Shown here piece by piece: positions 678 to 63,551 of a stretch of DNA of 64,000 nucleotides. Source of the DNA: Felis catus (Eukaryota); contig NC_058382.1 of NCBI RefSeq assembly GCF_018350175.1, positions 53,818,001 to 53,882,000 on the forward strand, read 5' to 3'. Numbering within the stretch: position 1 is the stretch's first letter; every line of letters starts with the position of its first letter. The notes beneath the pieces were generated by a model. That model made no database searches. It was not told where the DNA came from and worked only from the letters and a program-made list of their open reading frames with translations. The position numbers and the translations under genes were made by a program.

Positions 678-1359
678 TGCAGCAATTCTCCCTACTGAGT
701 ATTTACCCAAAGGAAACAAAAACACTAATTCAAAAAGATACACGAACCCCTATGTTTGTTGCAGCATTATCTACAACAGGCAAGATATGGAAGCAATGTG
801 GGGCGCCTGGGTGGCTTGGTCGGTGAAGCATCTGGCTTCGGCTCAGGTCATGATCTCACAATCCGTGAGTTCAAGCCCCGCATCAGGCTCTGTGCTGACA
901 GCTCGGAGCCTGGAGCCTGCTTCAGGTTCTGTGTCTCCCTCTCTCTCTGACCCTCCCCGCTCATGCTCTGTCTCTCTCTGTCTCAAAAATAAATAAACAT
1001 TAAAGATATGGAAGCAATGTAAGTGTCCGCTGACTGATGAATGCACAAGTGACTGAGTCAGGGAAAGACAAATAACACATGATTTCACTCATACCTGGAA
1101 TTTAAGGCACAAAATAAACGAAGAGAAAAGAGACAAACGCACACAAAAAACAGACTCTTAACTCTAGAGAAAAAACTGGTGGTGATCAGAGGGGAGGTGG
1201 GTGGACAGATGGGTGGAAGGTGAAAGGGATTAAGAAGACACTTATCATGATGAGCAGGGGTTAATGTATAGCATTGTTAAATCATTATATTGTACACGTG
1301 ATAGTAATATAACACCATACATTAATTATTCTTGATTTTAAAAATATGTTTAAAAAAAA
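678..1359 (+). mobile_element. 5'-truncated L1 3' end (ORF2 tail plus 3'UTR), interrupted by a SINE
   Basis: 'cagcaattctccctactgagtatttacccaaagga...tatgtttgttgcagcattatctacaacaggcaagatatggaagcaa', then a 3'UTR with 'gatttcactcatacctggaattt', a G-rich tract and an A-rich tail at about 1340-1359. Confidence 0.85.
800..1002 (+). mobile_element. Can-SINE (felid SINEC type), full length
   Basis: GGGGCGCCTGGGTGGCT head, B-box GAGTTCAAGCCC, CT-rich segment, AATAAA tail; perfect 18-bp TSD aagatatggaagcaatgt at 782-799 and 1003-1020. Confidence 0.97.
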
Positions 1360-3793: not shown

Positions 3794-4002
3794 GGGGCGC
3801 CTGGGTGGCTCAGTCGGTCGGGTATCCGACTTCGGCTCAGGTCAAGATCTCACGGTCCGTGAGTTCGAGCCCCGTGTCGGGCTCTGTGCTGTCACTTCAG
3901 AGCCTGGAGCCCGCTTCAGATTCGGTGTCTCCCTCTCTCTCTGCCCCTCCCCCACTCACGCTCTGTCCCTGTCTCTCAAAAAATGAATAAACGTTAAAAA
4001 TG
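3794..4002 (+). mobile_element. Can-SINE, full length
   Basis: Canonical head and tail; 16-bp TSD tttaaatagtttggtt at 3778-3793 and 4003-4018. Confidence 0.97.
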
Positions 4003-12000: not shown

Positions 12001-12232
12001 CACACCTGTTAGCATGGCTACTATCAGACAAGAGATAAGAAGTGTGGGCAAGAATGTGAAGAAAAGAGGGGCGCCCGGGTGGCTCAGTCGGTTGAGTGTC
12101 TGACTTCGGCTCAGGTCATGATCTCACACTTCGTGAGTTCAAGCCCCGCATCGGGCTCTGTGCTGACAACTCAGAGCCTGGAGCCTGTTTCAAATTCTGT
12201 GTCTCCCTCTCTCTGCCCCACCCCTGCTCGTG

Positions 12233-13796: not shown

Positions 13797-14007
13797 GGGG
13801 CGCCTGGGTGGCTCAGTCGGTTGAGCATCTGACTTCCGCGCAGGTCATGATCTCAGGGTTCGAGGGTTCGAGCCCCACGTCGGGCTCTGTGCTGGCGGCT
13901 CAGAGCCTGGAACCTCCTTTGCATTCTATGACTCCCTCTCTCTCTGCTCCTCCCCTGCTCACACACTGTCTCTCTCTCAAAAATAAAGATTAAAAAAAAA
14001 TTTTTTA
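13797..14007 (+). mobile_element. Can-SINE, full length
   Basis: Canonical head and tail, flanked by aagttttag on both sides. Confidence 0.95.
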
Positions 14008-49934: not shown

Positions 49935-50385
49935 GCGCGAGACAGATTAATGGCACTCCCAAAGACGTCCATCCCCTGGTCCCAGAATCCCATACCTTGT
50001 GACTATGTTGCCTTACATGGCCAAAGGGGACTTTGCAAACGTGATTAGGCCAAGGATCTTGAGACAGATCATCTGAGCTTATCCGGTGGACCCAATGTAA
50101 TCACAAGGGTCCTCATAACAAGGAGGCCGGAATGGCAGAGTCAGAGGCAGGCGCAGCTGGCTTTGAAGATGGTGGAAAGAGCTGTGAGCCAAGGGATGCA
50201 GGCAGCTTCCAGAAGCTGGAAAAGGCAAGGAACGGGTTCTCCCTAGAACCTCTAGAAGGAGTGCAGCCCCTGACAGGTTGATTTTAGGACTTCTGACCTC
50301 CAGAATTGCAAGATAATAAATGTGTGCTGTTTTGAGCCATAAAACCTGTGGTGATTTACTAGAGCAGCAACAGCAAGCTAATATG
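49935..50385 (+). mobile_element. MLT1D-like solo LTR
   Basis: 'cccaaagacgtccat...tgtgactatgttgccttacatggc...ggactttgca...ctggctttgaagatgg...gacttctgacctccagaattgcaagataataaatgtgtgctgttttgagcca'. Confidence 0.9.
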
Positions 50386-52127
50386 ATATTATTTGTTGTC
50401 AGGCATATATCACATAATTTACATTCATTTGTTCAAAAAATACACTCACTGAGTAAGTATGCTGCTCCAGGAATCGCGCCAGGTTCTGAGGGCACAGCAG
50501 TGGCCCCAAGAGTCCGGAACATATTTACAGGCCAGAGAACAGTGAGAAAACAGGCCACAAAGGCGGGTACTGCTACACCCATTCGAATGTTAAGAACCTG
50601 AAGACACAGAGGACTAAAGTAACTTCTCCAAAGTCTTCTGAGTTACAAATGACCCAGGCGGGATCCAACCATGTCTGTCTCACAAACAAACCCGTGTCAT
50701 TTTCACCACCTTCTCATCTTCCTTGGGGACGGCTTGGGATGCAGAACTAAACTTCCTTCACATGCCTAAACCTGTCATTTTCCTCTAAATTCCCGGAAGC
50801 TACATACATCCCTTCCTCGGATGGGACAGTGGCCGTTTCCAAAGCTGCTTTGAACCACGGTACTTCTCAACGTGCTTCTCTTAGGGACCACAGGCACGTA
50901 TCTTGTTATACACAGCCCCTGATATTTTGATTATTTTGATGCAAATCCATCACCCATAATAAATTCCCCTGCTTTCCAAACGCAATCGATTTTAGAGGCA
51001 TGAAAGCAAAAGCGAAGTAAGCCCTGACAGTCTTCGCGAGTGTCCGTGACAGGAGAGGCCTAAGTGGCTGCAAGCTATTTTCCTCACCGTCAATCCGCCA
51101 GATGATCTTCCTTGCACAAACACACACCCATACGGGCTGGCTAATGCTTGCCTTTTCGGACATATGTGAGCAAATAAATGTAATTACGAGCAAGATGTAA
51201 TCACAACTGCCTCGCTATTAAAGCTGTGGTACGCTCTCGTGGCTCGGCTAACAATATAGGCAGAAGGGTGGAACTGCTTGCTCCTCTCCCAGAAAGAAAA
51301 ACATTCCAGAAGTATGGCCTCTTTAAAATTATATCTGCAAAAATACAACATTTAAATGCAGAATCTGACTTCCCAAGAATCGCACCAGAAAACCTTTTAA
51401 CAGAAACAGCAGGGAGAGAAAGCTTTTTAAATCATGATACTCCATGAAGGATTATGAAAATGGGGGTCATCGCATGAGACAGAATTGCAAATACAATGAG
51501 GAAAATCTTCTCCTCTGTGTAAATACATGAGGACAATTTATTCTTCTCTGTTGAGCCATCAGGGGATATTTTCAGCTTCTGGACAAAGGAAGGGAAAGAA
51601 GCCACCATGTCCAAATGGATCTGTTCGGAGGGATGCGCTGGGCTGCTGCCCGGTAGTAAGGGTCACCTTCTCACACACTCAACCAGGCTGCCTGAGAAGA
51701 ACTGGCCTAAGACTTTCCCAGAGCCCGTTAAGCAACTGGGCACACAAAAGCTGACCGAAGACTCACTTGCGTTCGGTCCTTAAGACAAGAGCAGAAAGGA
51801 CAAACCTACCCACGTCCAAATGCACAGATACCAGCCTACCAGCCCAATGGTACATGCAGGACGCTCAGGCATCGACTATCTTCCTACTCAGCTCGTCTCT
51901 CAGAAACAGCCGACCCCACCAACCACGTTACTTAGTCAACACTGAGCACTGGTCTCTGGTGAGATTTTCAGGACGAAAGAGGTTACTCAACAGTGTATCT
52001 TATTTCTAAGTTATAATGACAGATCTGTAAAAATAGCGTCTTCGTGTTGCCATCTGTGTGTATGTTCCTATCTGTGCGGTGCACACGTGGTTGGCGTAGA
52101 CACAGATATGCTTTCTTGAGGAGCCAT

Positions 52128-52167
52128 GATAGGTAGGTAGGTAGGTAGGTAGGAAGGAAAGTAGGTA
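52128..52167 (+). repeat. (TAGG)n tetranucleotide repeat
   Basis: Read directly. Confidence 0.9.
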
Positions 52168-52837
52168 GACAGATTCTTCTTTTACTTGAAATTTCTTGGT
52201 TACTTACAAGGAAATAGTTGGGTAACTATCACAATACTGAGAAGATAAAGGGGAATAAGAAACACAAGTGTTCTGCCCTCAAGTGTACTGTTATCTAGTT
52301 GGGAAAGACAGGTGAACGAATGAACAGAATACACCAATGCAAAGTAGGAAGTGCTCCATGAGATTGGGTGAAATAGGGCTGTTTCTTTGGTTTGCCCGCA
52401 TAAAGTCTCCAAATCTTGACTCAGACTATGGATTGGGCTCACCAAGTTGAAATACTTTGGCTAAACTCCAAAAATTGTTTTGTTTAATGGGACTTTGTAA
52501 TAAAAGTGAAACATTTTCTGGGAATGAGCAATACACAGAATAAAATCAACTACATGGTCTTTCCTACACAACAAACTTTAATAATGCTCTATTTCTTCAA
52601 TGTTAAAGGTCAGAGTTTTTCACACTTTAGCATGGCTGAAAATAGGATGTGCACCCTATCAGTGGAATCTCTAAACTGCAATTGATAGCATTTTTTTCTT
52701 TTTGGGATTATACATAAAATCATGTTGTGTCTTACTCTTAGATGCAAGGAATTATAACCTATGTATTAATTGATCAATATAATAATTATATACAGAGTTC
52801 TGATTATGGTGTGGTGGACTGATCAGTGCTAATTACA

Positions 52838-53043
52838 TTGTAGTGTGCTCATATATGTTTAACAACTAGTTCTCCAGGGGGAAAAAGTCCCTGATTTACA
52901 GCAATTGGCAAATTTTCATGGCGTAAATACTCCTACCATGGTCGATTTCAAGCTACCAAGGTGACATCATTGAATGTAAGGTGGGAAGGGTTCAGCAAAA
53001 TTGGCCAGGAGAGCATGTGTGAGCTGGCCCCAACACACCACTG
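52838..53043 (-). mobile_element. MER63A-like hAT MITE
   Basis: 'gtaaatactcctaccatggtcgatttcaagctacca...gtgacatcattgaa...acacaccactg' is collinear with the reverse complement of the recalled MER63A consensus. Confidence 0.8.
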
Positions 53044-54792
53044 TACCCATGTCAATCTAGAGCTAATTTCAAACTCTTTCTCAGACAGCACGTCTCAGGC
53101 AGCAGACCAACAATGGTTGGCTAGAACAGCCTGTAAATCCTGATCAGTGTTTGTATTTAATATCACCCTGACAATACTAAGTTATAAATAATCTAAAGTG
53201 CGGTTCTGATGTTAATGTTCAGTCCCTTCTCATCAGGCTCCTAGCCTCTGTTTGTGAAGGGAGTATTTCTATCCTTACCCTACCGAAATTCTGTTTTTCA
53301 TCATCTGGTTTAGTGTCAGCTGCTGATTCCAATTTTTGTGTAATGTTATTCCATATTCCATAGCAATCTTCATTAGAATTGTATACATTGTAAAATGTAT
53401 ACATTTGGGGCTTTATACAAATTGCAGAGGACAGTTGGTCTCTGTCTGCAAATGTTCTGAGTCTACACTTGAAGGGCTGAATATTTTCTGTCTATGGTCA
53501 AAGAAAAGGCAAAGGAGAGCCACTCTCACCACCTGTATTCAATGTTGTAATGGACATTCTAGCCAGGGCAATAAGGCAAGTAAAATTCAATCAACCAATG
53601 AATGAATCAATCAATCAATCAACCAATCATGTGACTGATCATAGGATCCATGTGATCCCAATTGGAAAAAGTAATTAAAACTGTTCTTACTCACATACGA
53701 CAAGGTCTTCAATGGAGAAGACTTGGTGGGCCCCCCCCAAAAATGATACTGAAACTGATAAATGAGTTTAACAAGGTTGCAGTATACAAAGTCAATACAC
53801 AAAAATCAATTCTATTTCTATATACTATCAACAAAAAACTGGAAATTAAAATCTTAAAAATACCATTTAAAATATCTTTTTTTGCAATACTAGTTTTTAT
53901 TTTATTTCTTTTTTATATATAATTTATTGTCAAATTGGTTTCCATACAATACCCAGTGCTCATTCTAACAGGTGCCCTGCTCAGTGTCCATCACCCACTT
54001 TCCCCTCTCCCCCACCCCCATCAACCCTCAGTTTGTTCTCAGTACTTAAGAGTCTCTTAAGGTTTGCCTCCTTCCCTCTCGGTAACTTTTTCCCCCCTTC
54101 CCCTCCCCCATGGTCTTCTGTTAAGTTTCTCAGGATCCACATGAGTGAAAACATATGGTATCTGTCTTTCTCTGCCTCACTTATTTCACTTAGCATAATA
54201 CTCTCCAGTTCCATCCACATTGCTCCAAATGACCAGATTTTATTCTTTCTCATTGCCAAGTAATATTCCACTGTACATATAAACCACATCTTCTTTATCC
54301 ATTCATCAGTTGATGGACATTTAGGCTCTTCCCATAATTGGGCTATTGTTGAAAGTGCTGCTATAAACATTGGGATACAAGTGCCCCTATACATCAGCAC
54401 TCCTGTATCCCTTGGGTAAATCCCTAGCAGTGCTACTGCTGGGTCATAGGGTAGATCTATTTTTAATTTTTTGAGGAACCTCCACACTGTTTTCCAGACC
54501 GGCTGCACCAGTTTGCATTCCCACCAACAATGCAAGAGCGTTCCCGTTTCTCCACATCCTCACCAACATCTACAGTCTCCTGATTTGTTCATTTTAGCTA
54601 CTCTGACCAGTGTGAGGTGGTATCTCAGCGTGGTTTTGATTTGTATTTCCCTGATGACGAGTGATGTTGAGCACCTTTTCATGTGCCTGTTGGCCATCTG
54701 GATGTCTACTTTAGAAAAGTGTCTATTCATGTCTTCTGCCCATTTCTTCACTGGATTATTTGTTTTTCAGGTGTGGACTTTGGGAGTTCTTT

Positions 54793-55042
54793 TTTTTATG
54801 TTTATTCATTTTTGAAAGACATAGAGACAGAGCACAAGCAGGGATGGGGCATAGAGAGAGGGGGACACAGAATCTGAAGCAGGCTCCAGGCTCTGAGCTG
54901 TCAACACAAAAGCCCCATGTGTTGTGCTCGCTTCGGCAGCACATATACTAAAAGCCCCATGTGGGGCTTGAACTCATGAACCGCGAGATCATGACCTGAG
55001 CCAAAGTCAGACGCTCAACCCACTGAGCAACCCAGGCGTCCC
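54793..55042 (-). mobile_element. Can-SINE inserted in the young L1 and itself interrupted by a U6 fragment
   Basis: Flanking repeat gagttcttt at 54784-54792 and 55046-55054; canonical SINE ends. Confidence 0.95.
54924..54953 (+). pseudogene. RNU6: 3'-truncated (tailless) U6 snRNA retropseudogene, U6 nt 1-30
   Basis: GTGCTCGCTTCGGCAGCACATATACTAAAA is the exact 5' end of vertebrate U6; perfect 14-bp TSD aaaagccccatgtg at 54908-54921 and 54950-54963. Confidence 0.96.
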
Positions 55043-56959
55043 GGTGAGTTCTTTATAGATTTTGAATACTAGCCCTTTATCCAATATGCCATTTGCAAAT
55101 ACCTTTTCCCGTTCTGTCGGTTTTAGTTTTAGTTTTGTTGATTGTTTCCTTTGCAGTGCAGAAGCTTTTTATCTTGATGAGGTCCCAATAGTTCATTTTT
55201 GCTTTTAATTCCCTTGCCTATCTTTTAAAGATATGAAATACTTAGGAATAAATCTGATGAAAGACATGAAGGACCTGTACTTTGAAATCTATAAAACATT
55301 GCTGGAGAAATTAAAGACCTAAATAAATGGAGGATATACTGTGTTCATGGGTCAGAAAGCTCAATATGGTTAAGATGTCAGTTCTCGCTAATCAGTATCC
55401 CAGCAGGCTCCTTATGGCAGAAACTGAGAGTATTCTAAAAGCCATATGGAAATGCAAAAAAGCTAAAGTGGCCAGAACAACTATGAAAAAGAATAAAGTT
55501 TTAGAGCTAACACCCCAGATTTCAAGATTTATAACAAAGTGCCAATGTGCAAACAACAGCTTTTCTACATGGGACAAAGGCAATTCAGCAGATGAAGGTA
55601 GTGTTTACAAGTGGTACTAGAATAACTGAGTATCCATATAAAAATATCACCTTTGATCCATTTACTTGCTAATATATAATATTAACTCAAAGTGGATCAC
55701 AGGCTTAAATATTAAACTTCAAAAAGAAAACGTAGGAGGAAACATTTTTGACATTGGACTAGGCAATGATTTCTCAGACATGACATCAAAAGCACAATCC
55801 ATAAAGGAACAAATTGATAAACTGGACTTCATAAAAATTTAAAATGTCTACTCTTCAAAAGATACTGTGAAGAGAATGAAAAGACAAAGCACAGACTGAG
55901 AGTATATATTCACAAGTAATATACTTGGCAAAGAATTTGCACTCAAAATATATAAAGGACTCTTGAAAGTCAATAATAAGCAAACCAACCACCCAACAAA
56001 TAAAAAGATATATGGATTGCAAGTAAGTACATGGAAAGTTGCCAATATCACTGGTCATTAGGGAAATGAAGATTAAAACTATAGCCAGATACTGCTACAT
56101 ACCTATTCAAATCACTAAAATTAAAATGGCTGATCTCACTGGGTCTTGGAAAAGACTCTCATATACTGTTGTGGGGATGTAAAATGGTACCACTACTTTG
56201 GAAAACAGCTTGGCAATTTCTTAAGATGTCAAAGTATACACCTATCCTATAATCCAACTGTTCCAACCCCAGTTATCTGCCCGAAAGAAATGATTTGTGT
56301 ATACAAAGTCTTTTACGTGCATGTTTGTAGACACCTAGTTTATAATACCTAGAAACTGGAGACTCCCCAAATTTCCAACAACAGGTGAATGGTTAAACAG
56401 AGGCATATTCATACAACGGAATACTTCTAGGCAGAACAAGAATGAATATCTGATACACATCCCAGCATGGATCAGCCTCAAAATTGTGGTGAGTGAAAGA
56501 AGCCAAACAGCAAGTATGCATAGAATCCCATTTATGTGAAATTTTATAAAATACAAACTAATGTATAGTGACAGAAAGTAGATAGTGGTTGCCTAATGGG
56601 CAGAAGTGATTACAAAGGGACCCAAGGAAACTTGTCTACGTATATATCAAACTAGTGTCTACACATATCAAAACTTACCAAACTGTGCATTTTATATATG
56701 TGCAGGTTATTCTATGTTAATTTTCCATCAATAGAGCTCTTTTTTTAAAAAAAATAGCAAATACTGGAATGATTTTAGTGTCAGAATTCTTAAAATGTGC
56801 CTATGCATATTTTAGACAAAGTGGATTGATGATTCAGAATAAAGAGATAAATGCACTAATTTCACAATTTGTAACACAATGTATTTGTTCTGGGTAGTAG
56901 AGTTTGAATGCAAAGGTTTGAACACTTTCTTCACTTTTAAATTGGTTGTTTTGGCTTAT

Positions 56960-57095
56960 GTGTATCCATTCATTCATTCATTCATTCAGTAAATAGTTAT
57001 TGAGCACTAACAACCAGCACTCTCCTAATACATTATTTTCTTTTAAAAGATGAAGTCTCTATTTCACGGAATTGCAATCTAGTAAGGAAGAGAGA
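56960..57095. mobile_element. L2 3' terminus with (CATT)n
   Basis: 'cattcattcattcattcagtaaatagttattgagcacta' is the typical antisense L2 end. Confidence 0.7.
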
Positions 57096-57117
57096 CAAAT
57101 AAAATGCAACACAAGCA

Positions 57118-57221
57118 GGGGTGCCTAGCTGGCTCACTTGGTGGAGCATGTGATTCTTGATCTTGGCCTTGTGAGTTCAAGCCCCACATGGAGTGTAGAG
57201 ATTAAATTTTTTTAATAAATA
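57118..57221 (+). mobile_element. Short old Can-SINE (tRNA-derived part only, SINEC_old-like, no CT segment)
   Basis: 'ggggtgcctagctggctcacttggtggagcatgtgattcttgatctt...gagttcaagccccac...tgtagagatta'; TSD aaataaaatgcaacac at 57097-57112 and 57222-57237. Confidence 0.9.
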
Positions 57222-59179
57222 AAATAAAATGCAACACTATATGTATACCCTTTATTGGAAATTATCTTGTGTACCTACTATGTGCCAGACAATTAATGGT
57301 AGAGTTGAGCAAGCAACCAGCTTTCCTATCACCTAGGAACGTAAAGTTCAAGCTAAGAAATGAGTATCAAAGGAGTGACCATGATAAAGTACATGCTATG
57401 AGGCTGCTTTCTAAGGAAGCAACTGACAAAGGGGTCAGCCCAGATTCCCAGAGAAAAGGAGGCTGAAACTGTGGTTTTGCCTTCTAACTATTTCATGCTA
57501 TCCTGAGTACTGGATTTGCAGCTCTGTTTCCTACATTTTAAGGGTTGCCTTCTAGGAAGGGCATCTGGATGGTCCTATGCGATCACCATCATAGTCAGCC
57601 TTTCTGAAGCAGCAAAAGAAAAATATGGATGATACAGAAAACAGCAGGTGCCAGGTCCTAACAATATAGGAGATAGCCCACTGTGGCCAAAAGATAGTCA
57701 AACTGTAATTGGGGCATACAGTATTTCAATCATTCCCAAATAGATAAGACAGATTTCCCCCAAATTTTCCATTGCCCTATCTTTGGAACAGCTCCACATG
57801 TGGCTATTTTTAGCTACATCATCGCAGTAAAGGCTAATCAGCTGAGGCATTACATACTGAGTCATGCCAACGTCTACTTAATAAGAAAGAACACATTCTT
57901 TAAATGTGGCAAGGGTAGAATATATATACCTCAATGGTACTGAACAGAGGGGATAATTCCCAGAGGTGCTTAAATTCCAAATCAGATCACTTTCCAGAAG
58001 CCAGCAAGAACATTTATTCAATATCAGATTTTCTGTGCTCAGATTGTCTTTCTTCGAGTCCTCACTCAAGCAGAAACATGAAGGTTTTTTTTTTTTAGCA
58101 TCAACACTGCATCAATAGTGTTTCATGAGATAACATGAAAGGATAAAGTCATTTTTTTCCTGCAGTTCAAAGTAGTCTTACAGGAAATTTGCTGTCAGTG
58201 GCATCCTCTGAGACCAAGTCTTTACCAGAGAAGGCAAGTAAAGCCAGTGACCGCAGCAAATAAACATTCTTCTCGCTACCTGGATTCTGGGCTAAGAGTG
58301 ATTTTAGTGGGGCCAGAGCTATCACTCTGGTGTCTTCTCTCAGAAACCTTCTATTCCTTGTCCTCTGACTATAGGATACCAAACCAGATTTTCCTATATT
58401 TCATACACCACGCCACTGGTCAGTATTAGCCTCAAAAGAGGCCGGTGTCAAAGGGTCGTAGATCATTTGAGCTGGGAAGAAATCAAAAGCATCCAGCCCA
58501 CCCTTCTCATTTTGTAGATGAGGAGACTGTAGCCCACAGAATTGGGGTCTTCTCCACTATCACATTTCCATTCATTCAATAACTATCTGCAATATGCTAC
58601 ACCTGTGTCATCAAGTCCCCACAGCATCTGAGGATGTAAGAGCTATATACTAATCTTTTAGACGAAAAATAAAAATGTGACTCCAAAGTCTGGTATGTTG
58701 TCTAAGATTTTAAGTGCCATAACTGAACCTCAAACTTGGATCTGAAGACTCTAAATCCGGTGTGTCTTGACGGGTGTCAGAGATGTTACAACTCTTACCC
58801 GTTTTTAAACTTCTTCTATCAGCAAAGCAGAAGGACTTGACAATGCAGCCATTTAAATCACTCTGCTACGACCAATCCAAAGTCTTCCTCTGCTTACGAG
58901 TGGCCTCTGGTGAGGGTCTTGGGCCATGAGTGTTTATGATCTTGTCAGGCCCTCAGCCCTTTGCTGTGAACCTCATTAGATGTGCTCTTCCGGCAACTCT
59001 ATTCCATTACATGCAGAAGTGGAGTAAATGGAGTACAGAGGGTGTTCTCAGGGGGAAAGATCAAAATAAAAGGGGGTGACTGGTTAGAGACTGTTTCTGG
59101 GGAAAGGGATGATGCATATGAGATTCACCAGGTTTACAAACGCATCAGGTCCCCACAGAACCTGTCATCTACTGTGCGT

Positions 59180-59725
59180 AAAACGCCCACAGTGATGTTT
59201 CCCAAATGCACATCTGCTCACATCTCTCCTCTCTACCCCTTTGCCCTCAGGATCAAGTCCAGGCTCATTAACAGGGCTGGCAAAGCTCCCCGTGATATGA
59301 CCCCTGTCTTTTTCCATCTGCAACTCTTCTTGGCAATCTGATCCACTGCTCTGCTTTCTTCATATGCATACCTACCTTCCATTCTCCCCCTCCCCAAGGG
59401 CCCCTCTCCCCTCTAGACCCTTGAACAAGCTGTCCGTTCATCCAGTGAGACTCTTCTCAACCTCCAGGATAAGCTCAGATGTTATTCTTTCTGAGGAGCC
59501 TTGCTTGTGCCCCGAACCCTGTAACAAATGGACCCAGGCTGGGCCTCCTAGTCTCTCCGTTTCATGGCTATTGTCACAGAGCAGTGAAATAGCCTGTTTA
59601 ATTTCACCCATCTACCACTATATTGGAAGTTTCCAGCTCACCAGTGTATCCAAGGCCAGGCTCAATGTCTTACCCACAGTTGTTGTACAATAGTTATTTC
59701 AGATGAATGAATGGATGGATGGATT
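59180..59725. mobile_element. L2 3' fragment
   Basis: 'gccctcaggatcaagtccaggctc...gctcagatgttattctttctgaggagccttgc...gatgaatgaatggatggatgg'. Confidence 0.6.
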
Positions 59726-62689
59726 AATTAGTTAATTAATTAATAGTGCTATGACTTGTTCTATAAACAGTTATAATTAGGTCGCTTCCATTGAAGGCAA
59801 CCAAGAATGACAAGCAGTTTAGACCTGTCCTTCCAAGCGATTTTTTTGGAGAGTTCATGGGGTCAGCCCAGCCCAGCAATCTGTGTTGAAAAGACTGCCC
59901 AGGGGGCATACAGAATGCATATTTGCGACATACACCTGAGAGGCTCAGGAGGGTCCAAGTTTCTCTGAAGCATCATCGGCCAATAAACGAGGGGACTCTA
60001 AAAGCAAACATGCAAGGTCTTCTACGCTACAGAATTTATTCCTCGTTGATGCTGAAATGGAACCTGAGACAGACAGAGGCTTAATGAACAAAGACTCTGG
60101 AAGAGGCAACCTGTCTTTGGGTAAAATGAAATCACTCCCGATTACCTCCAATGGACAGCAGTTATGAGCTCCTGTACACAATTTAAAGGTAATCTTGTAA
60201 TTTAAAAAGGGGGGGGGGAATGCCCATTGAACCTAATGGTAAGTGACATTATGGCTCAGCTGTGATTAGAATCAAGCAACTTTCTTCTGGTGCTTTAGTG
60301 GCAGTGGCTTCCTTAGGTTCAGAGAGGGTTAATTCTATGATCCTTGGGGATGCTTTAATGGCCCTGGTTATCCAAACCTTGATTCAGAGCAGAGGCTGCG
60401 GATTATGTTTTCTCTGCACATCCACAGACATATTAGGACATGAAGTGAACATGACAGCAGGAGAATATCTCCTTTCTCCTCGGAAATGCCCCAGGAGAGT
60501 TTCCCACCGCGACCTCCTCAGACCCTGGCTTTGCATTAGAGTTATTGTCCTGAGAGCAGATTCAGTTAGAGCCTCTGATTCATTTCCTATAGTGCTCTCT
60601 TGTTTATTCTTGGTGGCAGCTAACTTGTAAAATTTTATTATGATTTTTTTTTCTTGGTTTGTGTCATGGAAGAGATAAAAAAAAAACCACACCACCAACA
60701 ACAATGATTCTATCATCAGTCCTAAATGTAGTTGTATAAATCCACACTGAGGCCATGTGTCTACAGGGGAAATGCAGGATAACAGGTTGTTGTGTTTCTA
60801 GTGGCCGTTCTCTGGGCTTGGATTTCATGTTTCTTATGGTCCAGAGGACCGAGGCAGGAAACTATACGTCTTGCGGGTACCGCTGGCACAGTGGTCATGC
60901 TAATTTGGATTTCACATGTCATCCGCTCACCATACTGGTGTTAGAGTGATCCTTGTCAAGCACACTGTGATCAAATCACCACCACCATCAACTGGTGATT
61001 CACCAAAATCACCATGGCTCACTGTGATTGCCACATTGAGCACTTCTCAGATGCCACAGCCCCCAGCTTCAACCTGTATACTCCAGTTACACTGAAACAC
61101 ACAAAGTAGCCATTGTAGGTCCACTGTTTCATGACTCTGTGCCAACTTACGGTGTCCCTTCTCTTAGGACATCCTCCATTTTCTCCCCCCATGTTTCTTC
61201 CTCTCACTGCTACTCCTTTGCTCAGAATTAACTCTCCAGGCATCATCTCCATCAAGCTGCTTCCCAAACACCCCACTGGACTTCATCCATCTACTGAAAT
61301 AGCCCATTTGGTTCTCTTTATCCCTTGTCAAAAAACACTCTACCTCCTCATTCAGACCAGGCTCTATCCATCCTTGTATTTCCAAAGCCTCGCAGAGTGA
61401 TTGGTATGCGGGTGGCCAACCAATACAGCTTCACTGCACTCTTCATGTTTCACCCTAGATGTCACGACCTCCAAGAAGTGACGCCCTTCCTCGAGGCTTG
61501 CTGGCCATGCCTCCTATTTGCTCTTATAGCACACTATTGAATACCATTAGTATTTCTTAGTATTTCCCCCACTGACTTGTCTATTTTCCCTCTAATCAGG
61601 AGCTTCTCCAGGGCAGGAAGTACATTTTCTGTGTCCACTAGTTCATGCCCAGAGCCATGCACAGCACCTGAAACAACATGCCAAATAAATGAATAAACAA
61701 AGAATGCAGATAAAGAGTGCCATTAAGAACCCAACAGGTCTATAGAGTGGACTCTGGCAACTTCAGCTAGATCTTTGAAATCCATGATCCCACAAGCACT
61801 GCTTCCAAGACAGGAACAGATGGGAGAGAAGGCCTTCCCAGTAGGAGTTATCATACCCGTGCCCTGAACCTCCTGAAAAGCCCAGAACACCATACTGTCA
61901 TAACGTGATGACAGATGAAAAGTGCAAAATTAAATTCAAGCTCATCTTGCAATTTTGTGTTTAGTCTTCTGTTGCCAACCTACGAGGTGCTTTTAAAACA
62001 GCTTGAGGATTTACCACTAATACCTTCCCGAAGACAACATTGTCTTTTGGCAGTCAGGGCTCCACCAAATTGTTGTTTTGGTGTTGGGTGTGTTTGGGGG
62101 TTGGGAAGGGGCAGACAAAAAGCAATGGGATTAATCTTTCAGCTGTCTGTCAGTTCATTTCAGCTGAGTACGTAGGACGGTTTTTGAGTTTTATGATGGC
62201 TCCAAGTGACATGGATGAAAACATCTCCAGCCCCAACCTGTATTATGGTGTTGTCTCGGTTTGGGGGTCTGTTTCATGTAAGTTTCATTCTCTACACCAT
62301 GCTCGGCTGTGTTCATTCCTCTAGCCTGAGGAGAAAACAGATTCTGTCGCCTTTTTATCCATCCCCTGGAAATTCCAGGTTTACATTGTATTTCGGTGAA
62401 GAAAGCTAACTTACCAAAGCCCATGCTGGAGTGAACCATAGTCGACTTAGACAATTCTCTCAAATCTTCTGGAAGTTTCTATCTAAACCATTATTCTAAG
62501 GAACTCTCTTAATGGAGGGGCTGTGTCGGTGGAGTAGAAATCAAGCTGAACTATTTAAGGGTAGAAGTGAGCTTTGCTTTAATGTGGCTGGAGAAGAAAC
62601 AAATGCTACATGAGAACAGACAGGGTTCTAGAATTGCTTTGACCTGAACCTACAATTGATACTTTTGCAGGTTGTTTTTTCCCAAGCAG

Positions 62690-63336: not shown

Positions 63337-63551
63337 GGGGCGCCTGGGTGGCTCAGTCGGTTAAGTGTCTGACTTTGGCTCAGGTCATGATCTCGCGGTT
63401 TGTGAGTTTGAGCCCCCCTTCGGGCTCTGTGCTGACAGCTCAGAGCCTGGAGCCTGCTTCGGAGGCTGTGTCTCACTCTCTCTCCCCCTCCTCTGCTCAC
63501 GCTCTGTCTCTCTCGGTCTCAAAACTAAATAAAAAAACATTTAAAAAGATG
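63337..63551 (+). mobile_element. Can-SINE inserted into a MIR core
   Basis: 16-bp TSD aaaacttctgagcctg at 63321-63336 and 63552-63567, at a TT/AAAA site; the host reads 'gtgaccttaagtaagtcattt..ttctgagcctgtttctccatc'. Confidence 0.97.

Follow-up and report, generated by a model that had tools for sequence, protein, structure and literature searches.

How did an isolated 5′ piece of U6 snRNA, enclosed in a perfect direct repeat, come to stand inside a SINE of the cat genome? The locus lies in the window, i.e. the whole stretch of 64,000 nucleotides of Felis catus DNA analysed here (contig NC_058382.1, positions 53,818,001 to 53,882,000). A first-pass annotation, made from the letters alone, had read it as a recent U6 retrocopy primed within the RNA, at an A4 target created by a mutation in the SINE.

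Anatomy and identity of the U6 stub

Between 54908 and 54963 a 14-bp repeat is followed by two T, 26 bases and the identical 14-bp repeat (AAAAGCCCCATGTG, at 54908-54921 and 54950-54963; identity 100%, spacing 42), exactly the layout first described. The elements of the locus are:

53894..55219, minus strand: high-copy LINE fragment hosting the SINE, 88-94% identical to its paralogues
54782..54792, plus strand: left-hand target duplicate belonging to the SINE itself, with one base fewer than its right-hand partner; four paralogues carry a single site
54793..55042, minus strand: host tRNA-derived SINE, split by the stub, ≈ 9% from the local majority sequence, with a weak tRNA match at 54953-55037
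54908..54921, plus strand: left copy of the target-site duplication, 14 bp (original target, C/AAAAG...), 100% identical to the right copy
54922..54923, plus strand: two extra T at the 5′ junction, probably added by the reverse transcriptase without a template (as AA on the cDNA)
54924..54949, plus strand: U6 snRNA nt 1-26, comprising the 5′ stem-loop (nt 1-19) and the single-stranded nt 20-26
54950..54953, plus strand: AAAA common to U6 nt 27-30 and the right duplicate, the putative priming microhomology
54950..54963, plus strand: right copy of the target-site duplication, 100% identical to the left copy
55043..55054, plus strand: right-hand target duplicate belonging to the SINE itself; four paralogues carry a single site

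A blastn-short comparison with full-length genomic U6 (L023, which agrees over 105 nt with L009, a copy scored as U6 by Rfam at 114.6 bits) aligned U6 nt 1-30 with window positions 54924-54953, the sole U6 match within the window (E 5.4e-12). The match starts at nt 1 and is identical at 30/30 positions, against a threshold of at least 26 nt and at least 97.5% identity, and it runs through nt 30, which bears out the early observation that AAAA of U6 nt 27-30 coincides with the first four bases of the right duplicate. The second identity check proposed at that stage, Rfam family RF00026, gave no U6 call in window 50000-60000 up to E 10, because the stub is too short; the full-length match of 106 nt at the Rfam cut-off that would mark a functional U6 gene is thus missing. 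The first 19 bases fold as the 5′ stem-loop (−9.5 kcal/mol, z −3.6), in line with the original reading of the insert.

The duplication, perfect over 14 bp where at least 10 bp was asked for, encloses TT and U6 nt 1-26 alone, with neither a poly(A) tail nor an L1 piece, as had been noticed from the start, and the right duplicate follows directly after U6. By way of a chance control, 11 out of 63,920 window positions have a 14-mer that is repeated in the following 60 nt. A U6/L1 chimera was considered and rejected, as no L1 piece shares the target duplication with U6. At the 3′ junction the complementarity between RNA and target amounts to 4 nt (class mean 4.1), and the cleavage site, TTTT/G, is a near-consensus minority form of the L1-endonuclease-like TTTT/A that also occurs at L002, L063 and L090. 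We regard the stub as, very probably, a functionless 3′-truncated (tailless) U6 retropseudogene formed by one-step target-primed reverse transcription, and its hallmarks point to L1 (ORF2p) as the enzyme.

The host SINE and LINE

The LINE was in place first, the SINE then entered it with a duplication of its own, and the U6 stub came last. The LINE fragment is presumably the 3′ part of an L1, and RVT_1 lies further along one of its paralogues (L115) on the same strand. The SINE, which we take to be of the CanSINE type and to which the stub is antisense, shows 12 differences from the local majority over 139 columns, a count that omits one inserted base and undercounts the ends. Just past the host LINE, at window 55233-55380, lies an oppositely oriented, older LINE-like piece, ≈ 70% identical to its paralogues. 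ARAGORN made five tRNA calls in the window (805-890, 3799-3884, 12073-12158, 13802-13887 and 63342-63427), which are read as SINE heads and not as genes; the first three overlap SINE matches. At gathering score, Rfam found in window 1-50000 only two SINE heads, called as tRNA, and Pfam gave no match for 18 of the 23 long ORFs in the window. Background on CanSINEs is contained in the part of PMC4084570 used here.

Truncated U6 copies in the cat genome

The U6 26-mer occurs at 323 places in the genome exactly and at 634 with up to one mismatch (reversed control, 0), and matches extending to U6 nt 46 with up to three mismatches are found at only 179. As a sample we took the first 100 exact matches out of 323 (L001-L100; contigs C1, C2, C10 and part of C11), the 26-mer query leaving out copies that end before nt 26. 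Here 84 of 100 loci are 3′-truncated stubs and 16 carry a U6 body. The stubs end at nt 26-33 in 75 of 84 cases and at nt 30, like the focal one, in 22. A duplication of at least 10 bp accompanies 77 of the 84 (57 of them perfect; median 17, the overlap with U6 counted in; the calls at L078 and L089 look doubtful and were kept in the 77), compared with 0/420 in a swapped-flank control and 3/380 in an earlier one. The count of truncated U6 copies with duplications that the first-pass annotation had suggested as a check thus came out in its favour, and its treatment of the locus as a striking single event did not hold. The sample scales to about 270 exact stubs genome-wide; no other kind of U6 copy is as common in the cat genome. 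Nor is nesting in a SINE special, since SINE sequence lies on both sides of 3/84 sister stubs.

The sample and its surroundings also hold other forms. Two loci ≈ 88 kb apart on contig C2 (L023, L024) carry a perfect full-length U6 in GC-rich flanks, with no tail and no evident duplication, and are likely true U6 genes. Three full-length copies (L007, L035, L069) have repeat-like sequence directly behind U6 that we take to be L1-like, and they are probable U6/L1 chimeras. A longer tailless copy at L044:200-300 ends near nt 84, with a duplication starting from the CAAA of U6. Short A extensions between the tailless and the tailed forms are seen at L012, L030 and L094 (6-8 A on the right versus 2 on the left). 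On contig C15 (81699152-81700442) two exact U6 5′ matches of 46 nt lie ≈ 1.2 kb apart on opposite strands.

The proportion of stubs agrees with that given by Doucet et al. in 2015 (PMC4476161, here and below in the parts cited), where 3′-truncated copies make up 236/279 U6 copies in cat, 316/415 in dog and 440/504 in ferret, and 1/24 in panda and 12/37 in human. The focal stub is therefore real and ordinary, a member of a class already known from cat, dog and ferret.

The A4 target and the age of the insertion

The host site differs from the other SINE copies by a G>A change plus one extra base (AAAAG for AGAG). Genome-wide counts for this position of the SINE are 161,591 for AGAG, 3,447 for AAAG and 7 for AAAAG, the stub-bearing copy included, and the other six AAAAG copies are without an insertion. 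The A4 run is accordingly a private change in two steps rather than the mark of a subfamily, and AAAAG arises unaided. By a rough estimate, the A4 target probably predates the insertion. The original claim that a mutation in the SINE had made the target stands insofar as the site deviates from its relatives, but two changes are needed to get from AGAG to AAAAG, not one. A SINE subfamily carrying the stub or the A4 target was rejected as a candidate, the target 26-mer being unique in the genome at up to one mismatch and AAAAG being confined to those 7 copies.

The same event might have struck a target with three A, the fourth being gained at or after integration. This is an unlikely version, in favour of which it can be said that AAAG copies of the SINE are ≈ 500 times commoner than AAAAG ones. 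However, six other SINE copies have AAAAG and no insertion, both duplicates here carry four A, a gain from three to four A on the right side is seen at only 1 of 13 A3 targets among the sister loci, and none of those A3 targets is preceded by C. It would alter a detail of the target, not the class of the event. The absence of stubs among the 3,447 AAAG SINE sites is uninformative, almost none being expected there. An A-run plus GCC follows four of the stubs, the focal one among them, and the remaining three are not located at the focal SINE position.

The changes private to this SINE (the A-run, two C>T at CpG and a G>C) are present in both U6 duplicates, between which no base differs, while the two duplicates of the SINE itself show one difference. 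The stub accordingly postdates most of the local decay. To this extent the event is recent, as had been claimed, but its date is weakly constrained: at usual mutation rates, 54 unchanged bases would allow anything from a very recent origin to one many million years back, up to well over ten million.

Mechanism of insertion

The model favoured here is internal priming on U6, the same as that in PMC4476161 and, in the part seen, PMC5322556. L1 ORF2p would nick the bottom strand at 5′-TTTT/G, and the freed TTTT end would pair with A27-A30 of U6. Reverse transcription would then run from U26 to G1, two non-templated A would be added to the cDNA end, and the cDNA would jump to the top-strand end 14 bp away, where fill-in would yield the duplication. 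By analogy, these steps may be said to be supported by the behaviour of human ORF2p in vitro, where it extends primers of 5 nt, adds bases without a template and jumps from one template to another (PMC10830420, portions cited). The same portions cite RNP assays with 4-6 bp of pairing, and 5 nt is the primer length tested in vitro, which the four paired bases at the focal stub fall below.

Of the 77 sister stubs with a duplication, 72 share 1 nt or more between U6 and target and 48 share 4 nt or more, where the Roth formula predicts 1.6-3.9% for at least 4 nt; this contrast is overstated, because L1 endonuclease itself prefers TT/AAAA and so partly produces the TAAAA overlap. Late end points that track the target are better evidence for pairing. 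L062 ends at nt 37 with TTGGAAC, L036 at nt 35 with TTGGA and L039 at nt 36 with TGGAA, and at L075, L081 and L082 the target ends in TTG and the stub at nt 33, matching U6 there; L078, L089 and a few others do not fit. In 42 of 47 sister targets the base before the A-run is T; the focal target has C, and targets with C in this place have at least four A in 5 of 7 cases, the focal one included. Taken together, the locus and its 77 sisters support the priming at the A-run of U6 that was first proposed and that is also the published model.

In the predicted fold of naked full-length U6, A27-A30 are paired with the 3′ U tail (unpaired probability 0.27-0.54, rising to ≈ 1.0 if the tail is blocked) and nt 20-26 are left open, so the priming site would not be plainly single-stranded. 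At five further loci (L085, L052, L055, L060, L011) the overlap lies within U6 nt 20-27 (ATATACT, TACT, ACT, CT and CTA, respectively) with little or no A-run, and their targets are unlike the L1 consensus.

Start of copying, 5′ extra bases and alternative primers

The register of priming was read from 85 stubs including the focal one, with targets taken from the left duplicates; 75 of them gave a clear reading, and the other 10 were set aside. In the 29 targets with 1-3 A, the A-run on the right equals that on the left in 23, a gain within the four A of U6 is seen in 2, and 4 behave otherwise. Of 14 stubs for which a shift would improve the pairing from a canonical nick, 13 keep the unshifted register. 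On both counts copying starts at U26, and simple sliding fails to explain this.

Extra 5′ bases occur in 31 of the 77 stubs, and T stands next to U6 nt 1 in 23 of these 31 (p 1.2e-4 against 0.4; flank T 0.29), compared with T as the base after the right duplicate in 4/31. TT precedes 51 of the 323 exact copies, about twice the expectation from base composition, and is the 5′ extra in 4 of the 77 sisters as well. The focal TT is thus typical, 5′ extras in stubs being mostly T.

A start at U26 would also be obtained if the template were a pre-cut 5′ fragment of U6 ending near nt 26-30 and primed at its 3′ end. The tight clustering of ends (75/84 at nt 26-33) and the 13/14 stubs that start at U26 despite a better register speak for such a fragment. 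It is nevertheless very unlikely, since for copies with ends at nt 33-37 the target sequence agrees with U6 at precisely these positions; furthermore, pre-cut fragments were sought for human 5S and U2 and none were found, a test in the cited part of PMC5322556 that did not extend to U6.

On the other hand, the oligo(U) tail of an immature U6 with a free 3′-OH could pair with A27-A30 and itself prime cDNA from nt 26 to nt 1, which would then be joined into a staggered break of the L1 type. Self-priming has a precedent in U3. The predicted fold, with A27-A30 held by the 3′ tail and nt 20-26 open, would suit it, as would the equal A-runs in 23/29 short-run targets, and ORF2p does extend short RNA hairpins (PMC10830420, portions cited). 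Against this stands the major form of U6, which ends in a 2′,3′-cyclic phosphate and cannot prime (PMC6789731, part cited). Self-priming moreover leaves unexplained both the target-tracking ends at nt 31-37 and the overlaps upstream of nt 27 (TACT, ATATACT), and a nick one base further, with the last A of the primer pairing to U26, is the simpler account of this register; in 27 of the 29 short-run targets the base before the run is T. We consider self-priming highly improbable as the origin of the focal stub.

That the locus is an assembly artefact, a chance arrangement or part of a U6/L1 chimera (by template switch or twin priming) is hardly credible: the stub does lie inside an L1-like fragment, antisense to it, but the same anatomy recurs at 77 sister loci, the duplication encloses U6 alone and lies inside the SINE, and the target 26-mer has no second copy at up to one mismatch. 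A search of sequencing runs returned 24, the best with a share of 0.57 of 53 words; such shares carry no information on the empty allele.

Relation to known retrocopies

Doucet and co-workers define 3′-truncated snRNA pseudogenes by a duplication and junction complementarity and propose priming at purine-rich internal segments (PMC4476161). The focal stub shares with their Group III an intact 5′ end, truncation at a purine-rich segment preceded by T, a target duplication, complementarity at the 3′ junction and the lack of a tail and of a repeat partner, and it falls within their cut-offs of at least 26 nt and a duplication of at least 10. There is no difference at class level; the C/AAAA target, a minority form, the 5′ TT and the nesting in a SINE are minor features.

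Internal priming and perfect duplications are likewise found in the tailless retropseudogenes (PMC5322556 and PMC2912911, in the parts cited; Schmitz et al. 2004 as cited there), where the priming is described for A-rich single-stranded segments, with a target complementarity of 2-18 nt and the target consensus TT/WAAAAWW. This wider class, and with it the occurrence of 5′ extra bases, was described by Noll et al. in 2015 (PMC5322556) and by Kojima in 2010 (PMC2912911); their focus is on human tRNA, 5S and U2, and the focal stub is one of the shortest forms. With the U6/L1 chimeras (PMC6789731 and PMC11838501, in part) it has in common the U6 template, the L1 machinery and a target duplication, but the chimeras have a full-length U6 fused to L1 in sense orientation, whereas the focal copy is cut short and alone.

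Significance

As a single locus, a dead insert of 28 bp in a dead SINE in a dead LINE, the stub matters little; if polymorphic, it would serve as a presence/absence marker of 42 bp. The class as a whole is a modest read-out of trans-mobilisation by L1. The register and the 5′-T pattern could sharpen the priming model, if they hold true genome-wide and against empty alleles. Neither the 5′-T bias nor the U26 anchor was found in print, and the figures (PMC4476161 Fig. 3 gives the U6 truncation sites) and several supplements may hold them.

With due reserve, as the idea is rather doubtful, the sister stubs may record a rule so far unreported, namely that U26, where the helix between A27-A30 and the 3′ U tail has its edge, serves as the anchor of synthesis, and that mostly A is then added at the capped 5′ end, giving T on the top strand. 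The anchor would be due either to a nick one base off the canonical site or to self-priming by U6 with a tail-paired 3′-OH. If this were true, the carnivore stubs would amount to a natural in vivo assay of the nick register of ORF2p and of its non-templated addition, and they would help to explain the contrast between the hundreds of such copies in cat, dog and ferret and the one that Table 2 of PMC4476161 gives for the panda.
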